21,454 bases of DNA from an uncultured bacterium (lineage in GTDB: Bacteria > CAIJMQ01). Position numbers and translations under genes: made by a program. Below, one piece after another: positions 493-21,401 of the stretch (positions are counted from its first letter, which is position 1; each line of letters begins with the position of its first letter). Below the pieces are notes generated by a model. That model worked only from the letters and a program-made list of their open reading frames with translations, did not search any database and was not told where the DNA came from. The stretch is taken from the NCBI GenBank assembly GCA_964573245.1, contig CAZNJA010000021.1, forward strand, positions 1-21,454, read 5' to 3'.

Positions 493-574
493 CCCGTTAG
501 AAGCCTGCCTCGACAGCAAGACGGGTAAGTCGCCAGAGATAACTGCCACACCTTTGATGTGGACTTCTAATGGG
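493..574. mobile_element. Family A miniature palindromic element with a nested 22-nt hairpin (504-525)
   Basis: Termini ACCCGTTAGAAG (492-503) and CTTCTAATGGGT (564-575) pair 11/12. Removing 504-525 leaves a core matching the panC copy at 50/60 positions. Confidence 0.85.
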
Positions 575-575
575 T

Positions 576-2021
576 CTAATTTTTATGAAACCGTCTTGAT
601 CTATTGTTCCCTGTCCGTTCGCCACTGCTTCCATGGCGGGTTGACGAGGATGAGCGATTGCGTTTATGGGAGAATCGGCTGGGGCGTGAACCGCCTGAAT
701 GAGAACTCCCTGAGCGTGAACCACTTGGGTGTGAACCACCTGTGCGCGAACCACCTGAATGAGGACTCCCTGAGCGTGAACCACTTGGGTGCGAACCACC
801 TGCGCGTGAAGTGCCCGAATGAGAACGGTTGCGAGAATGTGACGACCCCTTATATCTGCCTGGAGAAAATTTATGAGCGCGGGCAGGAGGAAGGTCAGCC
901 GGAAGCGGTGAAATCGGAAGACTTTTTCTTATCAGACGTTCAATACGGTACAAATCACGCCGCTGCTGGGAAGTTGCGAATGAAATAGCATGTCCGTTAG
1001 CGCCGGCGCGGGCCGTTCGTCCGATTCGGTGCACATAATCTTCAGAGTTATCCGGAAGGTCATAATTAATTACCAGTTCAATGCCGATTACATCAATACC
1101 TCTTGAAGCAACATCGGTGGCTACTAATACGCGATATTTCCCTGATTTAAATCCTTGAAGCGCCTCACGGCGTTGGAAAAGGGAGCGGTTGGAATGAATC
1201 TCTGCGGCTCTATGTCCAATACTGCAAAGCACCTTCGTAAGTTTGCTTGCTCCGTGTTTTGTCCTTGTAAAAATAAGTGTCGGGCCGGAATATTGTTTGA
1301 GAAGTTTTTCCAATAGACGGGATTTCAAATCTTTTGAAATAATAAAAATTTCCTGTGTTACCTGTTTAACTGTTGTCCCGGTAGGAGCAACCTCTATTCT
1401 AATCGGAACTTTCATGTATTTCGTAGCCATATTCATAATTGCGTGAGGTATTGTCGCGGAGAAAAGCATTGTTTGTCGCTCACGCGGAAGCGCGTTGAAG
1501 ATTTGTCTAATTTGGGGCTCAAATCCCATGTCTAACATACGGTCTGCTTCATCAAGTACGACAATAAGAACATTTGCAAGCCGCACTGTTCTTTGCTCTA
1601 AATGGTCATTTAAACGACCCGGAGTAGCTATAATAACATGTGGATTTCTGTTAAGCGCTTGTATCTGGGGGCGTATTGACGTACCTCCGATAATAACAGC
1701 CGTTTTTAATCTCATATCTGCGCCGATTTGATGCAACGCTTCGTCAACTTGTATGGCAAGTTCCCGCGTGGGAACCACCACCAAGCCGCGCCCTTTTACT
1801 TGACATAGCTTTTGAAGCATCGGGATGCCAAACGCAATTGTCTTACCGGTGCCCGTCTGGGCAATACCTACTACATCCTTGCCCTGTATTGCTACCGGCA
1901 TGGCTTGACTTTGAATCGGGGTAGGTTCTTTATAGTTTAATTTTTCCAGTGTTCTTAAAAAACTAGGCATGATGCCCAGCCCAGAAAAAGCCGTATTTTG
2001 ATGTTGATGGTTTTGACTCAT
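576..2021 (-). CDS. DEAD-box ATP-dependent RNA helicase (RhlE/CshA-like) with a Ser/Gly/Arg-rich tail
   Basis: Motifs PTPIQ, AQTGTGKT, PTRELA, TPGRL, DEAD, SAT, ATDVASRGID, HRIGRTAR. Confidence 0.95.
   Translation of the reverse strand: MSQNHQHQNTAFSGLGIMPSFLRTLEKLNYKEPTPIQSQAMPVAIQGKDVVGIAQTGTGKTIAFGIPMLQKLCQVKGRGLVVVPTRELAIQVDEALHQIGADMRLKTAVIIGGTSIRPQIQALNRNPHVIIATPGRLNDHLEQRTVRLANVLIVVLDEADRMLDMGFEPQIRQIFNALPRERQTMLFSATIPHAIMNMATKYMKVPIRIEVAPTGTTVKQVTQEIFIISKDLKSRLLEKLLKQYSGPTLIFTRTKHGASKLTKVLCSIGHRAAEIHSNRSLFQRREALQGFKSGKYRVLVATDVASRGIDVIGIELVINYDLPDNSEDYVHRIGRTARAGANGHAISFATSQQRRDLYRIERLIRKSLPISPLPADLPPARAHKFSPGRYKGSSHSRNRSHSGTSRAGGSHPSGSRSGSPHSGGSRTGGSHPSGSRSGSSHSGGSRPSRFSHKRNRSSSSTRHGSSGERTGNNRSRRFHKN
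684..810 (-). repeat. Coding tandem repeat, about 2 x 60 nt built from 15-nt subunits, in the helicase tail
   Basis: 684-743 closely matches 744-803. Encodes SRAGGSHPSGSRSGSPHSGG / SRTGGSHPSGSRSGSSHSGG. Confidence 0.9.
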
Positions 2022-2144
2022 AAATTTTTATATACGAAGATTTTATAATTTAAGCCGGAAATAATCTTCTCGTCGGACACCTCAATATGTAGGTTTTCTA
2101 TCAATAGCATAATTACACCTTGAAAATATAAAAATTAACTGCAA

Positions 2145-2173
2145 AGAATAGCACGCAAAGCAATAAGTAGCAA
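2145..2173 (-). promoter_or_regulatory. Putative sigma70 promoter of the helicase gene
   Basis: TTGCTA (2173-2168), 17-nt spacer, TATTCT (2150-2145) preceded by TGn. Implies a 5' UTR of about 115 nt. Confidence 0.5.
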
Positions 2174-2190
2174 GTAAGTGTAAGAATTTT

Positions 2191-2219
2191 CTCCCACATC
2201 AAAATCTTTGGCGCGGAAG
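2191..2219. repeat. Degenerate family B 29-nt hairpin element downstream of ssrA
   Basis: 21/29 identical to the reverse complement of the mnmA insert, sharing the CAAAATCTTTGG core. Folds on the minus strand with G-U pairs. Confidence 0.6.
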
Positions 2220-2257
2220 TTTACAAAATATATCAAAGGCAGGAGGACAACTCAATA

Positions 2258-2613
2258 TGGTGGAGGTGACGGGAATCGAACCCGTGTCCATAGAAAAGCT
2301 CCTAAAAGGCAGCTACACGCTTGTTCCTTATTTTAGTTTAATTTCTCTCCTCTCCCAAGGACAAGATAAGAAAGAAACGAGTCTGGTTTTTTGTCCTTCT
2401 TGCCCTTCAGACCGAGAACAAGAAGTAAGCCCGTTTTCCTGCATCCTTAATGCCCAACAGGCAAAAGCGTATAAGGATGTCGACCGCTTTGTTAAGCGGC
2501 GAAAGCTACAGCTTCTTCAGCTTTTGTATTTTGTCAGGTTTTAACGAGGCCTCCTGACAACCTCGGCGTGCTCCTTTTAGCCGCTTGCTCCATGTCGATG
2601 CCTTGGCACCCCC
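2258..2613 (-). ncRNA. ssrA: tmRNA (transfer-messenger RNA)
   Basis: 5' GGGGGTG pairs with 3' CACCTCC-ACCA, including the G3-U alanine identity pair. T-loop GGTTCGATTCC. Tag frame at 2521-2492 encodes AEEAVAFAA*. Adjacent to smpB. Confidence 0.95.
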
Positions 2614-2620
2614 ATTAATA

Positions 2621-2770
2621 AAATAAAAAATTAAACATCAAATATCAAAAATACATATTAAAATTTAAAATGTAAAAAAAGAACAACCCAAACACTTGTT
2701 TTTTGTTTAGTTATTAAAAATTTTACATTTTGCATTGTCATTTTACTTTTTACCTTTTAATTTTTGATTT
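2621..2770. repeat. AT-rich imperfect inverted repeat with about 7-nt periodicity
   Basis: A-rich arm 2621-2672 aligns with the reverse complement of T-rich arm 2719-2770; (T/C)AAAA-type units recur. Confidence 0.6.
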
Positions 2771-2777
2771 ATTTTTC

Positions 2778-3227
2778 CTATCTTCCCTTTACCGCTTTTC
2801 TTATTTCCTTTTCCACATCGTGCTTTTTTAAGTCGGCGCGTTTATCAAATAGTTTTTTGGCTTTTGCAAGCCCGAGTTCTACTTTCGCCCAGCCCCTACT
2901 TGCGAAATAAATTTTTAACGGAATCAGCGCCAGCCCTTTTAAAGCAAACTTTCCCGCAAGCTTCTTAATTTCGTTTTTATGCAAAAGAAGTTTTCTTTTT
3001 CTGGTCGGAGCAGTGTTAAAAATGCTCCCCTCTTCGTAGGGGGTAATATGCATATTGTAAAGAAAAACCTCTCCATCTTCAACTTTTGCGAAAGCATCAA
3101 CGATACTTACATTCCCTTCACGCAAAGATTTAACCTCTGTTCCTTTAAGCACAAGCCCGGCTTCAAATTTGTCCGTAATATGATATTCGTGAAAAGCCCG
3201 CTTGTTTTGGATTACTTTTCCGGCCAT
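2778..3227 (-). CDS. smpB: SsrA-binding protein SmpB
   Basis: NKRAFHEY, EAGLVLKGTEVKSLR, RKRKLLLHK, KVELGLAKAKKLFDKR. ATG 3227 preferred over the upstream TTG in the ORF track. Confidence 0.97.
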   Translation of the reverse strand: MAGKVIQNKRAFHEYHITDKFEAGLVLKGTEVKSLREGNVSIVDAFAKVEDGEVFLYNMHITPYEEGSIFNTAPTRKRKLLLHKNEIKKLAGKFALKGLALIPLKIYFASRGWAKVELGLAKAKKLFDKRADLKKHDVEKEIRKAVKGR

Positions 3228-3233
3228 GCGGGG

Positions 3234-3261
3234 ATTGTACCCTAATAAAACCAAAAATCAA
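3234..3261 (-). promoter_or_regulatory. Putative promoter giving a leaderless smpB mRNA
   Basis: TTGATT (3261-3256), 16-nt spacer, TACAAT (3239-3234), then 6 nt to the ATG. No Shine-Dalgarno sequence. Confidence 0.5.
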
Positions 3262-3324
3262 ATCTTAAATAGCAAAGACAGAAACCAAAAACATAAAAAT
3301 ATATTTACATTTTTAATATGTATA

Positions 3325-3395
3325 TTCCCTCTGCAATTTTAAAAATTGCGAGGACTTAGTCCCTGAAATTGCAAAGCAATTTCTAGGGGTAATTT
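3325..3395 (-). repeat. Family C double-hairpin element embedded in an AT-rich array
   Basis: Hairpins at 3328-3353 and 3361-3388. Minus-strand ends AAATTACCCCTAGAAATT and CAGAGGGAA match the ends of the 18021-18098 element. Confidence 0.7.
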
Positions 3396-3425
3396 TTTAT
3401 TTTTGATATTTGATATTAAGCGAAG

Positions 3426-4046
3426 CTACGCTTCCTCAAACACTTCTGCCTCGAATATATAAATATTTGTGTCTTTATCTTTCCATGCATCTGGCGGCAG
3501 GCCTGCCTTGTGAGAGCATAAACAGGAGAGAAACTCTTCCTTTTTCCAGCCGGTTTCTTCGGCGACCTGTGGAAGAAATACGCCCTGATTAAACCCTTTT
3601 CGAACGATTACACCATGTATGCCCAGTTCAATTTCCTTAACATTTTTTATCTTTCTCGGTTGGGAAAGAACGGAAATCTCTATTTTTATATCCTTTAATT
3701 CGCTTTCCGTGACAGGTGGAAACCGCGGGTCCTGTGTGCTTGAGGCAATCGCCATATCCCGCACAGTTTGATAAAGCGGCTCACTGCTTACTATATGCCC
3801 AATACAGCCGCGCAACGACTCCTCATCATGTGGTTTGCTTTTGGCCCCCAAACCAGAGCGAGCCCCGCCTTGACGCGAGGCAGGTCGGTTCGGGGTAAAA
3901 TTTCTCAAAGTTACAAAAGCGCCGTAAGATTTTAATAGTTCAGGGTCGTCCTCGCTAAATTTAGTAATTTTTCTTTCTTTGATATATGTCTTGAGCGTCT
4001 GGCGAGCAATTTCTAATAATTTCTTCTTTTGTTCTTTGTTAAGCAT
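3426..4046 (-). CDS. amrA: AmmeMemoRadiSam system protein A (AMMECR1 domain) with an in-frame palindromic insert
   Basis: GAFVTL...LRGCIG, DPRFPPV, IEISVLS, GVFLPQVA, KAGL. ATG 4046 overlaps the end of the upstream gene. Confidence 0.9.
   Translation of the reverse strand: MLNKEQKKKLLEIARQTLKTYIKERKITKFSEDDPELLKSYGAFVTLRNFTPNRPASRQGGARSGLGAKSKPHDEESLRGCIGHIVSSEPLYQTVRDMAIASSTQDPRFPPVTESELKDIKIEISVLSQPRKIKNVKEIELGIHGVIVRKGFNQGVFLPQVAEETGWKKEEFLSCLCSHKAGLPPDAWKDKDTNIYIFEAEVFEEA
3846..3895. mobile_element. In-frame palindromic element with a nested hairpin (3864-3884)
   Basis: Coding-strand arms CCCCGAACC and GGTTTGGGG; inner CCTGCCT...AGGCGGG. Encodes about TPNRPASRQGGARSGLGA between VTLRNF and the LRGCIG region. 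Confidence 0.8.
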
Positions 4047-4536
4047 TTTTATTAAACAGTTGAACAATTGGTTTATGTGTGAAAAAGACGAAAAACATTA
4101 TATAAATTACAAGATCCCAAATTCCCATAAAGCTTATTGTAAATCTACCCATCAAAAACATTGTTATAAACCTACTAAGAATGACCAGAATAATTAGAGA
4201 TAATAACATCTTTCTCGCCCACGATTTCCTCAGAAACAGGGATATTCCAGATACTATAAAAGATGCCGAGAGGAGGAAGGAGAAAGCAAATAAATACAGA
4301 ACCGTTGCTTTATTTTGTATACCCCAAATTTCTTGCACTGCATCTAAATAGTAACTAAATGACTTTACAATTTCTGTAAAAATACTTGATCCCTCAACAT
4401 GAAGAATGAAGGCAATAACAATACTTGGCGCAAAAATAGCAAATACTTTTATCAAACCGTGTAAACATATACAAACTGCAATAAATCGTAACAAAAATAA
4501 AGGTTGTTCCAACTTTTGTTTAATCTTTAAAAGCAT
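4039..4536 (-). CDS. Hypothetical integral membrane protein, about 4 TM segments
   Basis: Hydrophobic ORF with an LFLRKSWAR loop, co-oriented between panC and amrA. ATG 4536 is the likely start; the ORF track start at 4578 is TTG. Confidence 0.7.
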   Translation of the reverse strand: MLLKIKQKLEQPLFLLRFIAVCICLHGLIKVFAIFAPSIVIAFILHVEGSSIFTEIVKSFSYYLDAVQEIWGIQNKATVLYLFAFSFLLSASFIVSGISLFLRKSWARKMLLSLIILVILSRFITMFLMGRFTISFMGIWDLVIYIMFFVFFTHKPIVQLFNKNA

Positions 4537-4545
4537 TTTCTTTTC

Positions 4546-4568
4546 CCGATAACCGAACACCGATAACC
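4546..4568. repeat. Heptamer tandem repeat CCGATAA-CCGAACA-CCGATAA-CC
   Basis: Directly visible just downstream of the panC stop. Confidence 0.6.
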
Positions 4569-4570
4569 AT

Positions 4571-5521
4571 TTACCCAATTATCATATTATCTATCAACCG
4601 CACTTTACCTATTCGGACCGCAAGTAATATTACCACTTCCCCGGTTATTTTTTTAACGGGTCGCAATGTTTTGGGTTCTCTTATTTCGATGTAATCGATA
4701 TTTAACCCTGCATCGTCCCGCCATTGTATCAGTGGCGGGTCTGGTGCAGGGCTTTCTTTCTTTATCATTGTTTGCATTCTTTTCTTAACTTTTTCGGCAT
4801 CGGTTGAGCCGTTTTTTATTAATTTCTTTGCTTCAATTAGTGAACGATAAAGAATTGTTGCGGATTTACACTCTTCTCTGCTTAAGTATGCATTTCTTGA
4901 ACTTTGGGCGAGGCCGTCTTTTGCCCTTACGGTTGGTAAGGTTTTTATTTTTGTATCTATGTTAAGGTCTTTGACCATTTTTTTAATTATGACTGCCTGC
5001 TGATAGTCCTTCTGTCCGAAATAACTCTTGTCCGGCTGGACGATGTTGAATAGTTTCAGCACGACAGTTGTAACGCCTCTAAAATGTCCGGGGCGAATTT
5101 TTCCTTCAAGAATACTGGATAATCCTGTTTCCTCCACATAGGTTGAGAAATTGTCGGGATTCACCCCGTTAGAAGTAAGTCGCCCAGGGCGACTGCCACG
5201 CCTTTGGTGTGGACTTTTAACGGGGTACATGTCTTCAACTGATGGGGCAAAGATTATATCAACACCTTCTTTTTTTGCGATGGTGTTATCGTGAGAGAAA
5301 TTTCTCGGATATTTTTTGTAGTCCTCTTTTGGCCCAAACTGCGTAGGGTTGACGAATATGCTTAATACGACGATGTCGTTTTCTTTTCGCGCTTTTTTTA
5401 TAAGCGAAACGTGTCCGTCGTGGAGCGCGCCCATTGTCGGGACAAAACCTATTGTTTTGCCTTTCTTTTTAAGGGTTTTTATTGTTGATGTTAATTTGTG
5501 TGGGGATTTAATTACTTTCAT
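4571..5521 (-). CDS. panC: Pantoate--beta-alanine ligase with two in-frame palindromic inserts
   Basis: GFVPTMGALHDGH, SIFVNPTQF, RPGHFRGVTTVV, FGQKDYQQ, DGLAQSSRN, RLIDN. Confidence 0.97.
   Translation of the reverse strand: MKVIKSPHKLTSTIKTLKKKGKTIGFVPTMGALHDGHVSLIKKARKENDIVVLSIFVNPTQFGPKEDYKKYPRNFSHDNTIAKKEGVDIIFAPSVEDMYPVKSPHQRRGSRPGRLTSNGVNPDNFSTYVEETGLSSILEGKIRPGHFRGVTTVVLKLFNIVQPDKSYFGQKDYQQAVIIKKMVKDLNIDTKIKTLPTVRAKDGLAQSSRNAYLSREECKSATILYRSLIEAKKLIKNGSTDAEKVKKRMQTMIKKESPAPDPPLIQWRDDAGLNIDYIEIREPKTLRPVKKITGEVVILLAVRIGKVRLIDNMIIG
4706..4751. mobile_element. In-frame palindromic element with a nested hairpin (4717-4739) in the panC C-terminal domain
   Basis: Outer arms CCCTGCATC and GGTGCAGGG; inner CCCGCCATTG-TAT-CAGTGGCGGG; flanked by TTAA at 4702-4705. 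Confidence 0.8.
5164..5225. mobile_element. Family A element, in frame in panC
   Basis: Termini ACCCCGTTAGAAGT and ACTTTTAACGGGGT pair 13/14. Two internal hairpins. Adds 22 aa between MYP and DNFSTYV. Confidence 0.9.
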
Positions 5522-5533
5522 GTTCTTTTAATA

Positions 5534-5608
5534 TGTCATTGCGAACAAAGTGAAAGGAGTGTGGCAATCTCACAAGATTGCTTCGTCGTTACACTCCTCG
5601 CAATGACA
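5534..5608. repeat. REP/RPE-like intergenic palindrome of the TGTCATTGCGA...TCGCAATGACA type
   Basis: Perfect 11-bp terminal inverted repeats (5534-5544 and 5598-5608) and an internal GCAATCT/AGATTGC stem. Confidence 0.85.
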
Positions 5609-5617
5609 GTATATTGT

Positions 5618-5676
5618 AATCTGTGTAATCCCCGCCTGCTGCGAAGCGGGCAGGTCTTTTTAAAATCAGTGTAATC
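5618..5676. repeat. AATC(T/A)GTGTAATC direct repeats enclosing a family D hairpin (5631-5654)
   Basis: 5618-5630 and 5664-5676 match 12/13, with CCCGCCTGCT-GCGA-AGCGGGCAGG between them. Confidence 0.7.
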
Positions 5677-6445
5677 ATTTATATTCCCGAGCTATTTCCT
5701 CTGCCCTGCCTATTCTATCATCAACATGCGGATGGGTTGAGAAAAACACCTCTATTTGTGAAGGAGTTCTTTTATATTGTTCTTTCAATATTTTTAAAAA
5801 TTCAACCATTCCATAAGGGTCGTAACCTGCTTTTGCGGCATATGTTATGCCGAGTTCATCCGCCTGAAATTCGTCGTTTCTTGAGTATCCCAAAGAGGTT
5901 AAATTGAATGTTAGATTTGCGAGGTTTTGTATGTCGCGGTCGCTTCCTCTTAATAAAATGCTGTAAATCATGGAATAACCGATTTGAGATTCTACTCTTT
6001 TGATTCCGTGTCGCGCGTTGACGTGTCCGATCTCATGTCCCAAAACACAGGCGAGCTGGTCGTCGTTTTCAGCTTCTTTTAGAAGCCCTTCCGTCACATA
6101 TATGTAGCCGCCGGGCAGAGCCAAAGCGTTCACATCCTCCACTTTTAAAATTCCGAATTTATAAGGAAGATGAGGTCTGCCGCTTGCTTTCGCGACTCTT
6201 AGTCCTATTTTTGTAAGATAGATGTTAAGCCTCTCATCCTTTACTATGCCGTGTTTTCTCTCCAAGGACGCGGCGGCTTCTTTTCCTATCTGGATTTCTT
6301 GTTTTTCTCCTATCAGGGTTGACTCGTCTTTGCCGGTGACGGGGTTATAGACGGTAGCACAACCTATGAGAAATAAAGACAAGAAAAATAAAAGAAGGTA
6401 TTCGGTTTTCGGTATTCGGTTTTCGGGACTTATTTTAAATCTCAT
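5675..6445 (-). CDS. M48-family Zn metallopeptidase lipoprotein (BepA/YfgC-like catalytic domain)
   Basis: Lipobox LIGC, NALALPGG, HEIGH, YSRNDEFQAD, STHP. Confidence 0.9.
   Translation of the reverse strand: MRFKISPENRIPKTEYLLLFFLSLFLIGCATVYNPVTGKDESTLIGEKQEIQIGKEAAASLERKHGIVKDERLNIYLTKIGLRVAKASGRPHLPYKFGILKVEDVNALALPGGYIYVTEGLLKEAENDDQLACVLGHEIGHVNARHGIKRVESQIGYSMIYSILLRGSDRDIQNLANLTFNLTSLGYSRNDEFQADELGITYAAKAGYDPYGMVEFLKILKEQYKRTPSQIEVFFSTHPHVDDRIGRAEEIAREYK
6397..6426. repeat. Heptamer tandem repeat (GGTATTC-GGTTTTC)x2 in the M48 5' coding region
   Basis: Perfect 14-nt duplication; encodes PENRIPKTEY ahead of the hydrophobic signal region. Confidence 0.7.
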
Positions 6446-20309: not shown

Positions 20310-21401
20310 TTGTTTAAAAAAAAAGTTCTGGTTGCAATGAGCGGCGGCGTAGACTCTTCGGTAGCGGCGTTTTTACTAAAAGAAGAGAAAAAATACGATG
20401 TCATTGGTGCAAATTTTAAGTTATTTGATGCTCAAACGAAACCTTATTACAAAAATCAAAACACCAAAGACGCTCAAGCTGTCTGCGAAAAAATAGGGAT
20501 TCCGTTTTACTCTTTTGATTATAGCAGGGAATTCAAAGAGAAAGTTATCAATTATTTTTGCGCAGAGTACTCGAAAGGAAAGACCCCCAACCCATGCGTT
20601 ATGTGCAACGAAAAAATAAAATTTGGCGCACTCTTTAGCAAAGCAAAATCATTGGGCGCGGATTATATCGCAACGGGACATTATGCCAGAAAAGCGCATA
20701 ATAAAAAAACAAAAAGGTATGTCCTAAAAAAGAGTAAAGATAAAAACAAAGACCAATCCTACTTTTTATTCTTTCTGACGCAGGGACAACTTAAATCTAC
20801 TCTTTTCCCGCTTGGGGGTTACACCAAGGAGGAAGTGCGCCAAATCGCGAAAAAGATCGGTTTGAAAACTCACAATAAACCAGAAAGCCAAGATGTTTGC
20901 TTTATCTATGGCCGAGACTACCATGAGTTTTTGGAAACTCATCTAAAAGGTTTTTATAAACCCGGCCCGATTACCCGTAGCAAAGGCGAAGTCGTAGGCA
21001 AACATAAAGGCATCCCGTTTTATACAATAGGGCAAAGAAAAGGCTTGGGACCCCATAAAAAGGCGATGTATGTTACTGGCATTGATAGCAAAAAGAATGT
21101 TATAGTAATCGGAGAAGAAAAAGAACTTTATCAGGACACTTTATTCGCGGAAAAGGTTACATGGACAGGGATAAGCAAATTAAAAGAGCCGCTGAAAGTA
21201 AAAGCCAAAACGAGATACGGGAGCAAAGAAAGCGAAGCGGTTATTTCTCCTACGGATAAAGGGATGGTTAACCCACACACCAAAGATTTTGGTGTGTGGG
21301 TTAAAGTAAAATTTGCCAAACCGCAAAGAGCAATTACTCCCGGACAAGCGGTAGTGTTTTATAATAAAGACATTGTTGTCGGCGGAGGGTGGATAAAATA
21401 A
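20310..21401 (+). CDS. mnmA: tRNA-specific 2-thiouridylase MnmA with an 11-aa palindromic insert
   Basis: AMSGGVDSS, TPNPCVMCN, ATGHYA, KDQSYFL, ESQDVCF, TIGQRKGL, AITPGQ. TTG start with GGGAG upstream. Confidence 0.97.
   Translation: MFKKKVLVAMSGGVDSSVAAFLLKEEKKYDVIGANFKLFDAQTKPYYKNQNTKDAQAVCEKIGIPFYSFDYSREFKEKVINYFCAEYSKGKTPNPCVMCNEKIKFGALFSKAKSLGADYIATGHYARKAHNKKTKRYVLKKSKDKNKDQSYFLFFLTQGQLKSTLFPLGGYTKEEVRQIAKKIGLKTHNKPESQDVCFIYGRDYHEFLETHLKGFYKPGPITRSKGEVVGKHKGIPFYTIGQRKGLGPHKKAMYVTGIDSKKNVIVIGEEKELYQDTLFAEKVTWTGISKLKEPLKVKAKTRYGSKESEAVISPTDKGMVNPHTKDFGVWVKVKFAKPQRAITPGQAVVFYNKDIVVGGGWIK
21272..21300. mobile_element. Family B 29-nt perfect hairpin with TTAA duplication, in frame in mnmA
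   Basis: TTAA-CCCACACACCAAA-GAT-TTTGGTGTGTGGG-TTAA. Confidence 0.92.

Follow-up and report, generated by a model that had tools for sequence, protein, structure and literature searches.

The hairpins of 21-27 nt with the arms CCYGCC and GGCRGG form a genus-wide family which inserts exactly, as whole units and with no duplication of the target; other small repeats, including the loops of the family's own members, are preferred as sites of insertion, but not exclusively. Four copies are present in the window, by which is meant the whole stretch of 21,454 nt analysed here (contig CAZNJA010000021.1 of an uncultured bacterium, positions 1 to 21,454 of the forward strand). The window is contig C21 of assembly GCA_964573245.1 (G000; 1.46 Mb, 110 contigs, 38% GC, 93% complete). 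In a sequence-only reading of the window the four copies had been described as a hyperparasitic micro-element found only inside other repeats. Their positions and sequences were confirmed exactly (Table 1), as was the resemblance of the reverse complement of the 504 copy to the copy at 3864-3884.

The genome-wide pattern search which that reading had recommended was carried out on G000 with CCYGCC-N4-16-GGCRGG and gave 59 loci after merging, whereas Markov models of order 1, 3 and 5 gave means of 1.1, 3.1 and 4.9, respectively, and 4.8 loci were predicted from the observed arm counts alone; the family is thus far above chance. A working set of 82 loci was obtained by widening the spacer to N3-30 and adding the 504 copy. 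The modal length is 27 nt (21 of the 82 loci), composed of CCCGCC, a loop of 11 nt, GGCGGG and the tail CAGG. Four subtypes were distinguished, the difference among them being mainly in the loop: subtype a (CCCGCCTGCCAAATCTTGGCGGGCAGG, 27 nt, loop ...TGCCAAATCTTGG...), which has no copy in the window; subtype b (CCCGCCTGCTGCGAAGCGGGCAGG, 24-25 nt, loop ...TGCTGCGAAGC...), with the window copy at 5631; subtype c (CCCGCCA...TGGCGGG, 23 nt), a perfect palindrome without the tail, with the copy at 4717; and subtype d (CCCGCCTTG...CGAGGCAGG), variable in length, with the copies at 3864 and 504. In subtypes a, b and d the CTGCC part of the loop can pair with the tail, giving the arms CCCGCCTGC and GCGGGCAGG, in which a single C.A mismatch and a single G.T pair are present on either strand. 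This arm asymmetry is common to the three subtypes and argues for their common descent, while the palindromic and tailless subtype c may be a separate family.

Insertion was examined by deleting each element in silico and searching the joined flanks against the genome (E<=0.01). A match spanning the empty site was obtained for 18 of the 82 loci, compared with 3 of 1500 random 25-nt deletions used as the control. In 16 of the 18 the alignment showed nothing but a gap of exactly the element's length, with at most 1 nt of ambiguity and no duplicated target, in at least eight kinds of host. Examples of the junctions are ...ACGAGAATC/27 nt/CAGAATCTAG, ...TTTTTAATC/27 nt/TCTAACGGGG, ...GGAGCTATC/21 nt/TCTAACGGGG and CCCCCACACC/27 nt/AAAGTTTTTGGTGTGGGGG, and the alignments set the ends of the element at CCCGCC... 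and ...GGCAGG. The 504 copy was a clean 22-nt gap relative to three empty copies of its host, a palindromic element of family A (C19:22962-23017, C27:6701 and window 5165), with the junction GTTAGAAG/22 nt/TAAGTCGCC; the 5631 copy was an exact 24-nt gap relative to empty paralogous sites on C103, C43 and C93, with the junction GTGTAATC/24 nt/TCTTTTT. The 5' flank was TC in 12 of 46 oriented copies, compared with 5.9% in the background, and ATC in 8 of 46, many other flanks being found as well. The comparison of filled and empty hosts, suggested by the sequence-only reading as a source of junction rules, therefore gave exact insertion, no duplication and a weak preference for TC, and the lack of a multi-base target duplication that it had pointed out at 504 was borne out there and at 15 further clean pairs. 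The hosts and junctions of 30 loci of a congener, G001, were the same as those of G000, and likewise those of 64 distinct metagenome sites.

The association with other repeats was strong. Eight of the 82 loci lay inside the 57 family-A elements, which make up 0.37% of the genome (0.29 loci expected), at a density of 1.54 copies per kb compared with 0.20 per kb in non-coding DNA and at several positions within the host. These counts, together with the empty paralogues of 18 loci, show that the copies are not distributed independently of other repeats; an independent distribution would have spoken against the sequence-only reading. Further hosts were the CCCCCACACC hairpins, with the 27-mer at the loop edge at four G000 loci, the CCMYGAACC...GGTTYRKGG hairpin, and the CCCACACACC-AAAGATTTT-GGTGTGTGGG hairpin, an empty example of which is found in the window and in the loop of which, elsewhere, the 27-mer occupies the 5' edge. 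The AT-rich arrays of short direct repeats typical of the spacers of the genus, which are not hairpins, also served as hosts. Such arrays (GTGTAATC, GGTATTCGGTTTTCGG, TTACGAATTACTG...) are seen in the window at 2634-2760, 3255-3420 and 6395-6430 and in the M48-panC spacers of G001 and G002; at orthologous sites they vary from one congener to the next, and the hairpins land in them by preference.

The family also served as its own host. A subtype a copy (a) was found as CCCGCCTGCTGC/a/GAAGCGGGCAGG and CCCGCCTGCCAAATC/a/TTGGCGGGCAGG at C11:5109 and in the metagenome stretches L111, L138, L144 and L185; joined together, the two halves of the host give back the 24- or 27-mer exactly, its loop being split at TGC/GAA or AAATC/TT. 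Another arm was present within 25 nt at 24 of the 64 distinct metagenome sites. Nesting in the reverse sense, with a TCCGACG..CGTCGGA or subtype c hairpin in the CCCGCCTGC..GCGGGCAGG loop, was observed at C2:22726, C23:12174, C82:5192 and C5:19835. The first two of these loci share a 39-nt composite, CCCGCCTGCTTG-CTCCGACG..CGTCGGAG-CGGGCAGG, for which C8:23255 is a candidate empty site of C2:22726; composites can therefore recur as units.

Table 1. Hairpin copies and their hosts in the window, and hairpins and genes elsewhere in G000 that are referred to in the text. Folding energies were computed with DNA parameters.
Feature	Contig	Position	Strand	Sequence	Remarks
Degenerate subtype d copy	C21 (window)	504..525	-	CCTGCCTCGACAGCAAGACGGG; minus-strand reading CCCGTCTTGCTGTCGAGGCAGG	22 nt; inside family-A element; mutated arm, barely folds (-0.8 kcal/mol, z +0.57)
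Host family-A palindromic element	C21 (window)	493..574	.	CCCGTTAGAAG...CTTCTAATGGG	rsgA/DEAD-box helicase spacer; terminal-inverted-repeat pair; -13.2 kcal/mol, z -2.1
Subtype d copy	C21 (window)	3864..3884	+	CCCGCCTTGACGCGAGGCAGG	21 nt; in-frame amrA peptide PASRQGG; -4.1 kcal/mol
Outer hairpin of amrA insert	C21 (window)	3846..3895	.	CCCCAAACC...GGTTCGGGG	21-nt copy in loop; -11.2 kcal/mol
Subtype c copy	C21 (window)	4717..4739	.	CCCGCCATTGTATCAGTGGCGGG	Perfect 10-bp stem, without CAGG tail; -8.6 kcal/mol, z -5.3
Scaffold hairpin, panC insert 2	C21 (window)	4705..4752	.	CCCTGCATCGT...TCTGGTGCAGGG	23-mer at tip; net 42 nt, 14 aa; -18 kcal/mol, z -5.9
Empty family-A element, panC insert 1	C21 (window)	5165..5224	.		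22 aa; empty reference for 504 copy
AT-rich host array	C21 (window)	5618..5676	+	AATCTGTGTAATC (5618-5630) and AATCAGTGTAATC (5664-5676)	Direct repeats bracketing the 5631 insertion
Subtype b copy	C21 (window)	5631..5654	+	CCCGCCTGCTGCGAAGCGGGCAGG	24 nt; M48 peptidase/panC spacer; -7.1 kcal/mol
Empty hairpin	C21 (window)	21270..21301	.	CCCACACACC-AAAGATTTT-GGTGTGTGGG	Empty-site match for C24:14641 and C77:4230
17-nt hairpin	C14	12816-12832, 12924-12940, 13079-13095		TCCGACGTWACGTCGGA	Partial tRNA copies next to intact genes
17-nt hairpin	C10	26314-26330		TCCGACGTWACGTCGGA	Partial tRNA copies next to intact genes
17-nt hairpin	C58	8127-8143		TCCGACGTWACGTCGGA	Partial tRNA copies next to intact genes
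GIY-YIG gene	C14	13250		TCCGACG..CGTCGGA hairpins	Beside tRNA-Val
GIY-YIG gene	C1	10068		amrA-type outer hairpin on both sides	Inside duplicated tRNA
GIY-YIG gene	C23	234		CTCGCCACC..GGTGGCGGA hairpins, upstream only	Beside tRNA
GIY-YIG gene	C27	11452		CCCCACACC upstream, ACCCCGCACC..GGTGCGGGGT downstream	

The copies of the window are lineage-specific, since the orthologous amrA, panC and M48-panC sites of relatives are without them. The outer hairpin and the inner 21-nt copy together make up most of a 54-nt insert in amrA, which only G000 has and which was missing from amrA of four close relatives (G001-G004) in DNA alignment; panC insert 2 was missing from three (G001, G002 and G004). The component sequences have a wider occurrence: the 23-mer of the 4717 copy recurs in family-A hosts at C3:11071, C13:15635 and C39:4965, the 24-mer of the 5631 copy is found in G000, G001 and G002, and the type of array that hosts the latter is also filled in the metagenome contigs L115, L146 and L166. 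The copies at 3864, 4717 and 5631 were covered with zero differences by contigs of four public salt-marsh runs, which may include the source sample.

The gene set around the hairpins, all on the minus strand, comprises rsgA, a DEAD-box helicase gene, the tmRNA, smpB, an AMMECR1-family gene (amrA), and the genes of a membrane protein, PanC and an M48 peptidase. The phosphoglycerate kinase of this genome has 90% identity with the enzyme from a 'Candidatus Ratteibacteria' genome; with the enzyme from a 'Candidatus Omnitrophota' genome the identity is 84%. Another palindromic element is found at 5524-5609 (gtcattgcgaac...cgcaatgac). Its 33-nt core (~5575-5607) occurred in the four salt-marsh runs at summed contig depths in the thousands and with many different flanks, so the core is shared by many organisms there; a metagenome copy of this element, L175, has the 27-mer in the middle. 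The C-terminal tail of the DEAD-box helicase, which is rich in Ser, Gly, Arg and His, is encoded by a tandem repeat with a 15-nt period at 669-833 (eight units), and two degenerate CCYGCC-like hairpins lie close to this repeat, at 610-640 and 855-887.

All genic and non-genic counts refer to gene models that are rough, being based on open reading frames and not on a gene finder. By these models 47 of the 82 loci were inside genes, and the other 35 were in the 12% of the genome outside them, which is an enrichment in non-coding DNA. The length was a multiple of three in 33 of the 47 genic copies but in only 14 of the 35 non-genic ones (Fisher p 0.0075), and a single frame, PA[RS]...GG, was used by 15 of 26 oriented genic copies. 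Within genes, then, it is mainly the multiple-of-three copies that persist, mostly in one frame.

The sequence-only reading had further proposed that protein inserts grow stepwise, and this fared differently in the two genes. For amrA it is plausible: an empty copy of the outer hairpin family is found at C56:2264, and a G001 copy of the family is filled at another loop position, both of which make a two-step history plausible, and the inner element, being 21 nt long, keeps the frame. For the second insert of PanC growth in place is unlikely. The scaffold family of this insert, GCACCAG-[18-24 nt]-ACGGTGC, has nine copies, which are never empty and bear apical hairpins of like size from different families; the inner hairpin of 23 nt would break the frame and for that reason cannot have been inserted by itself into a functioning gene. 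Of the two PanC inserts, this one (14 aa) is present in G000 only, and insert 1 (22 aa, family A) is found at the same site also in G002. The family-A elements of the two panC genes occupy the same codon position (5165-5224 in G000, L003 in G002) in opposite orientation and encode different 22-aa peptides, the result either of an in-place flip between the terminal inverted repeats or of two independent insertions.

The occurrence of the family across genomes was assessed from exact-arm copies (CCCGCCTG-N4-14-CGGGCAGG), with the reversed pattern as the control, which gave 0 in all the genomes listed here. G000 contained 24 such copies, and the other three genomes of the same genus contained 36 (G001, 21 of them of subtype b), 19 (G002, mostly of subtype a) and 7 (G003). 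None was detected in G004, of the same family. Two genomes of the same class had 3 copies with another loop (G006) and 8 copies (G007), seven with the G006-type loop and one with a different loop. Among other phyla, G010 had 8 copies, seven of them subtype-a-like and 26-27 nt long, and G048 had 4 copies of a variant. The collection holds only nine genomes of the phylum of G000; G010 stands alone in it, and its copies are compatible with vertical or horizontal origin. The dominant subtype varies by genome, as expected of mobile families, and subtype a was found exact in 77 metagenome stretches.

The CCYGCC...GGCRGG hairpins are probably a superfamily of very small mobile elements of the REP or small-dispersed-repeat kind, which carry no gene and would be mobilised in trans. 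The element would move as single-stranded DNA, and it is for this reason that sites which easily become single-stranded, namely hairpin loops and AT-rich arrays, would be preferred. Cutting and joining would be performed by a hairpin-recognising nuclease or transposase supplied in trans.

Several observations weigh against this interpretation. The four subtypes may be without a single common origin, the target motif is weak, and the swaps of hairpins of the same length suggest replacement or recombination as a second route. No empty allele and no joint skipping the element was seen at 3864, 4717 or 5631 in the contigs of the four salt-marsh runs, although contigs drop rare variants and the runs may include the source sample, so that this result is uninformative on mobility. 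The orientation of the copies is near-balanced, with 19 forward and 17 reverse in G001 and 14 against 8 on the longest G001 contig, which does not fit the strong strand bias of the IS200/IS605 elements. No intact gene for HUH/RAYT, TnpB, reverse transcriptase or rve accompanies the element; G001, the genome richest in copies, gave no Y1 match (it is 92% complete, so that absence is unproven); the four RAYT-like genes of G002, in which HUH is intact, have no hairpin within ~1.5 kb; and the CCCGCCTGC type flanks on both sides none of 20 small GIY-YIG loci (6 in G000 and 14 in G001, G002, G003 and G010).

The IS200/IS605 elements move as single-stranded DNA by 'peel and paste', depend on hairpins and leave no target duplication; their two ends bear different hairpins, and insertion takes place 3' of a fixed motif of 4-5 nt, with the strand bias mentioned above. 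The present family resembles their derivatives in the lack of target duplication (16 clean pairs) and differs from them in the single hairpin, the weak TC preference, the near-balanced orientation and the lack of an intact Y1 gene in G000 and G001 (93% and 92% complete, respectively). From a classical miniature inverted-repeat transposable element it differs in that, although the arms are inverted repeats, no target duplication was present in the 16 pairs.

An IS200/IS605-type gene (HUH, RAYT-like) flanked by the hairpin, which the sequence-only reading had advised looking for, was found neither in G000 nor at the 17 Y1 loci inspected (8 of relatives + 9, the nine checked to ~1.5 kb); at one Y1 locus of G002 a short CCCGCCAGAGGCGGG palindrome lies ~1.2 kb upstream of the gene. 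The single Y1-like gene of G000 encodes 436 aa, scored 33 bits against the RAYT model (cut-off 80) and has no flanking hairpin. In its product S-D-K-V-Y-L-L stands where RAYTs have N-H-V-H-L-L, so that K-V-Y is presumably the HUH position. The N-terminal part of this protein gave no match among solved structures. The protein (L001 1429-2739, G000:C12) consists of a RAYT-like N-terminal domain minus the HUH histidines, a membrane segment and a C-terminal domain resembling the product of the upstream gene, and the gene of its G003 orthologue (L064, G003:C5) contains an in-frame CCTGCCCG...CGGGCAGG hairpin. TnpB (PF07282), reverse transcriptase (PF00078) and rve (PF00665) gave no match in G000, their absence being unproven at 93% completeness.

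Small single-domain GIY-YIG nucleases are the best remaining lead, for the hairpin modules as a whole; they are not linked to the CCYGCC family. G000 contains six such genes (81-104 aa), four of which have sister hairpin families within 350 nt (Table 1), and the nearest solved relatives of the proteins are UPF0213 proteins. The regions of these genes (C14:12790-13560, i.e., L107; C1:9990-10400; C23:1-440; C27:11400-11900) lie in several cases within or next to tRNA genes accompanied by partial tRNA duplications, and similar arrangements were seen at the GIY-YIG loci of G002 and G010. One CCCGCCTGC-type copy was found near a GIY-YIG gene, 274 nt upstream, in L211 only. In this locus (G002:C104:240-3464) a 96-aa GIY-YIG gene lies amid arrays of ATTCCCGCG...CGCGGGAATGAC-type hairpins, which by eye are like the Neisseria dRS3 consensus ATTCCC[N8]GGGAAT (quoted in PMC11893778); the SRM-motif regex gave no match there. 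It is conceivable, if rather doubtful, that such nucleases, acting on single strands and lodged in tRNA genes, write and swap the whole set of hairpins (CCCGCC type; TCCGACG..CGTCGGA; CCMYGAACC..GGTTYRKGG; CCCCRCACC..GGTGYGGGG) between single-stranded sites. On that view the modules would enter one another's loops, take the place of hairpins of like size, including anticodon arms in tRNA copies, and build up larger palindromic elements and in-frame protein inserts piecewise, and the same 27-mer would be shared across phyla.

A different account would see in the spread of the family mainly the exchange of one hairpin for another of like size, brought about by recombination, by gene conversion or by template switching where a hairpin has stalled, and not transposition into new sites. 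Two 102-nt family-A copies, C3:11004-11105 and C22:9710-9811, are indeed alike save for an exact 23-nt swap of CCCGCCATTGTATCAGTGGCGGG and CCATCCGACGTTACGTCGGAGGG; the nine copies of the panC-type scaffold always carry an apical hairpin, of differing families; and a 17-nt TCCGACGTWACGTCGGA hairpin (5-bp stem, 7-nt loop) occupies the anticodon-arm position in partial tRNA-Val and tRNA-Ala copies, at loci where ARAGORN and Rfam call only the intact tRNAs. Such an exchange is nevertheless unlikely as the main route, since the 16 filled/empty pairs, among them those in AT-rich arrays and in unique coding sequence, are pure insertions with nothing to replace, both host halves are intact in the self-nested copies, and the swapped modules are without obvious flanking homology to guide conversion.

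That the element is an obligate hyperparasite, inserting or surviving only inside repeats or hairpins and building protein inserts always stepwise in place, is very improbable and already contradicted by the solo copies at C8:26334 (in a 2662-codon gene), C37:9914 and C22:15043. By the automatic tests, 30 of the 82 loci were in family A, had an empty paralogue or had at least three flank matches, and 38 were associated with a repeat if a neighbouring arm was counted; the remaining 44 failed all the tests, at least six of them being nested by eye. The flanks paired with each other at only 6 of 80 loci, the corresponding shares being 0.7% for random positions and 1.9% for random non-coding ones, and the proposal that the copies are always at the tip of a larger hairpin was rejected on this count. 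The frame shift that the 23-nt inner hairpin of panC insert 2 would cause is a further objection. Such obligate dependence does agree with the nesting of all four window copies, with how strongly family A, hairpin loops and the family itself are enriched in copies, and with the empty state of the amrA outer hairpin elsewhere. What stands of the sequence-only reading is therefore a mobile element strongly associated with repeats; the restriction to the inside of other repeats holds for the window but not genome-wide, where about half of the 82 loci are in or beside repeats and the rest in unique sequence, many of them in frame within genes, and insertion or tolerance only in hairpins does not agree with the solo half of the copies or with the many hosts that are AT-rich arrays.

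Selected functional motifs, such as terminators, RNA stabilisers or protein-binding sites, which would be alike by common function and not mobile, are a remote prospect as an explanation of the family. The loops and the asymmetry of the arms are the same, letter for letter, in unrelated hosts and in different genomes, which convergence leaves unexplained, and 47 of the 82 copies are inside gene models. The features in favour are the GC-rich stems in a genome of 38% GC, the 35 loci in its 12% of non-coding DNA, and the TCTTTTT that follows the 5631 copy on the plus strand. This T-run, at 5655, belongs to the host array, is present in the empty sites and has its neighbouring genes on the other strand, and the reading of the 5631 copy as a terminator was accordingly rejected.

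Chance, compositional bias or an assembly artefact, for which the 110 contigs of the assembly and the over-representation of the arm hexamers (747 and 726 copies) could be adduced, has a negligible probability and is rejected by the controls, with at most 5 loci expected against 59 even given the observed arm counts, no match of the reversed pattern in the genus, and copies in independent contigs of four runs and in 77 metagenome stretches.

As very small mobile hairpins, the elements reported here have several known counterparts. REPs are GC-rich stem-loops of 20-40 bp in tens to hundreds of copies, consisting of a hairpin and a four-base end tail, and their subfamilies differ in loop and stem (Di Nocera, De Gregorio, Rocco 2013, PMC3733652). 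Some of them lie inside small palindromes, such as GTAG-23 of T. roseum in CCGSSCC(n3,4)GGSSCGG, others in frame inside genes (O. terrae, R. conorii), and CGTC REPs have no dedicated flanking transposase (PMC3733652). The CCYGCC hairpins are like REPs as described there in being short palindromic stem-loops of high copy number (82 loci, modal length 27 nt) with a tail at one end, loop subtypes and copies inside palindromes and genes. They differ from GTAG and CGTC REPs in the tail, CAGG (CCTG on the other strand), and in that no RAYT gene is flanked by the repeat, as it would be in a REPtron. They are also mostly singletons and not dimers, 47 of 82 are inside the rough gene models, although the copies are, in keeping with the mainly extragenic location of REPs, enriched outside them, and exact self-nesting in the loop is absent from the available part of the REP description in PMC3733652.

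The NTS/SRM repeats are oriented hairpins of 20-50 nt that number in the hundreds and are bound as single-stranded DNA by the small single-domain GIY-YIG protein Ssn (cd10448), whose gene they flank; the activity shown for Ssn is the cutting of DNA and not its movement (Chenal et al. 2025, PMC11893778). The six small GIY-YIG genes of G000, four of them near sister hairpin families, recall this system as far as its available description goes. In contrast to it, a fit to HGTCWYN(0-2)YYVSBRHN(0-5)WNVSBRGN(0-2)RNCYNB was given by 0 of the 82 loci, taken on both strands and with 12 nt of flank at either end, and the CCYGCC hairpin flanks on both sides none of the 20 small GIY-YIG loci; the SRM motif gave 2 matches genome-wide in G000, compared with 1 in the reversed control. 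The Rickettsia palindromic elements (Ogata et al. 2000, summarised in PMC3733652 and PMC3184786) are in-frame palindromic repeats in housekeeping genes, to the products of which they add a short peptide. The present family resembles them in the in-frame insertion into genes (panC, amrA; 33 of 47 a multiple of three) and differs in its size, 21-27 nt with composites of up to 54 nt as against about 100-150 nt; nesting is not a stated feature of the Rickettsia elements in the available parts of these summaries. A literature search revealed no account of the CCYGCC hairpin family or of small repeats in Ratteibacteria/Omnitrophota, although the REP tables in the Additional files of PMC3733652 could hold a CAGG-tailed family.

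The CCYGCC hairpins are classified here as a new family within the known REP-like mobile micro-hairpins. The small dispersed repeats SDR1-8 of Nostocaceae, the subject of work by Elhai and co-workers in 2008, are reportedly hairpin repeats of 21-27 nt which move between related genomes and lie within each other and within miniature inverted-repeat transposable elements, with no enzyme known. Their size, mobility and nesting, as so reported, match those of the present family, whereas the host phylum and, presumably, the sequence differ.

At 21-27 nt the family is near the lower size limit of mobile DNA, and its insertion chemistry can be read from filled and empty pairs, including those in its own loop. 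Neither of the known partner enzymes of such repeats, RAYT and Ssn, was found associated with it, and the genus in which it occurs has genomes that are very small and poor in mobile genes; since candidate enzymes are few there, the question of the mobiliser of REP-like hairpins is unusually tractable in this genus. The inserts alter the lengths of proteins, and gene calls and alignments can be led astray by them in Ratteibacteria- and Omnitrophota-like genomes. The copies also show how smaller modules can be combined into larger palindromic elements and, in housekeeping enzymes such as PanC and the AMMECR1-family protein AmrA, into short peptide inserts.

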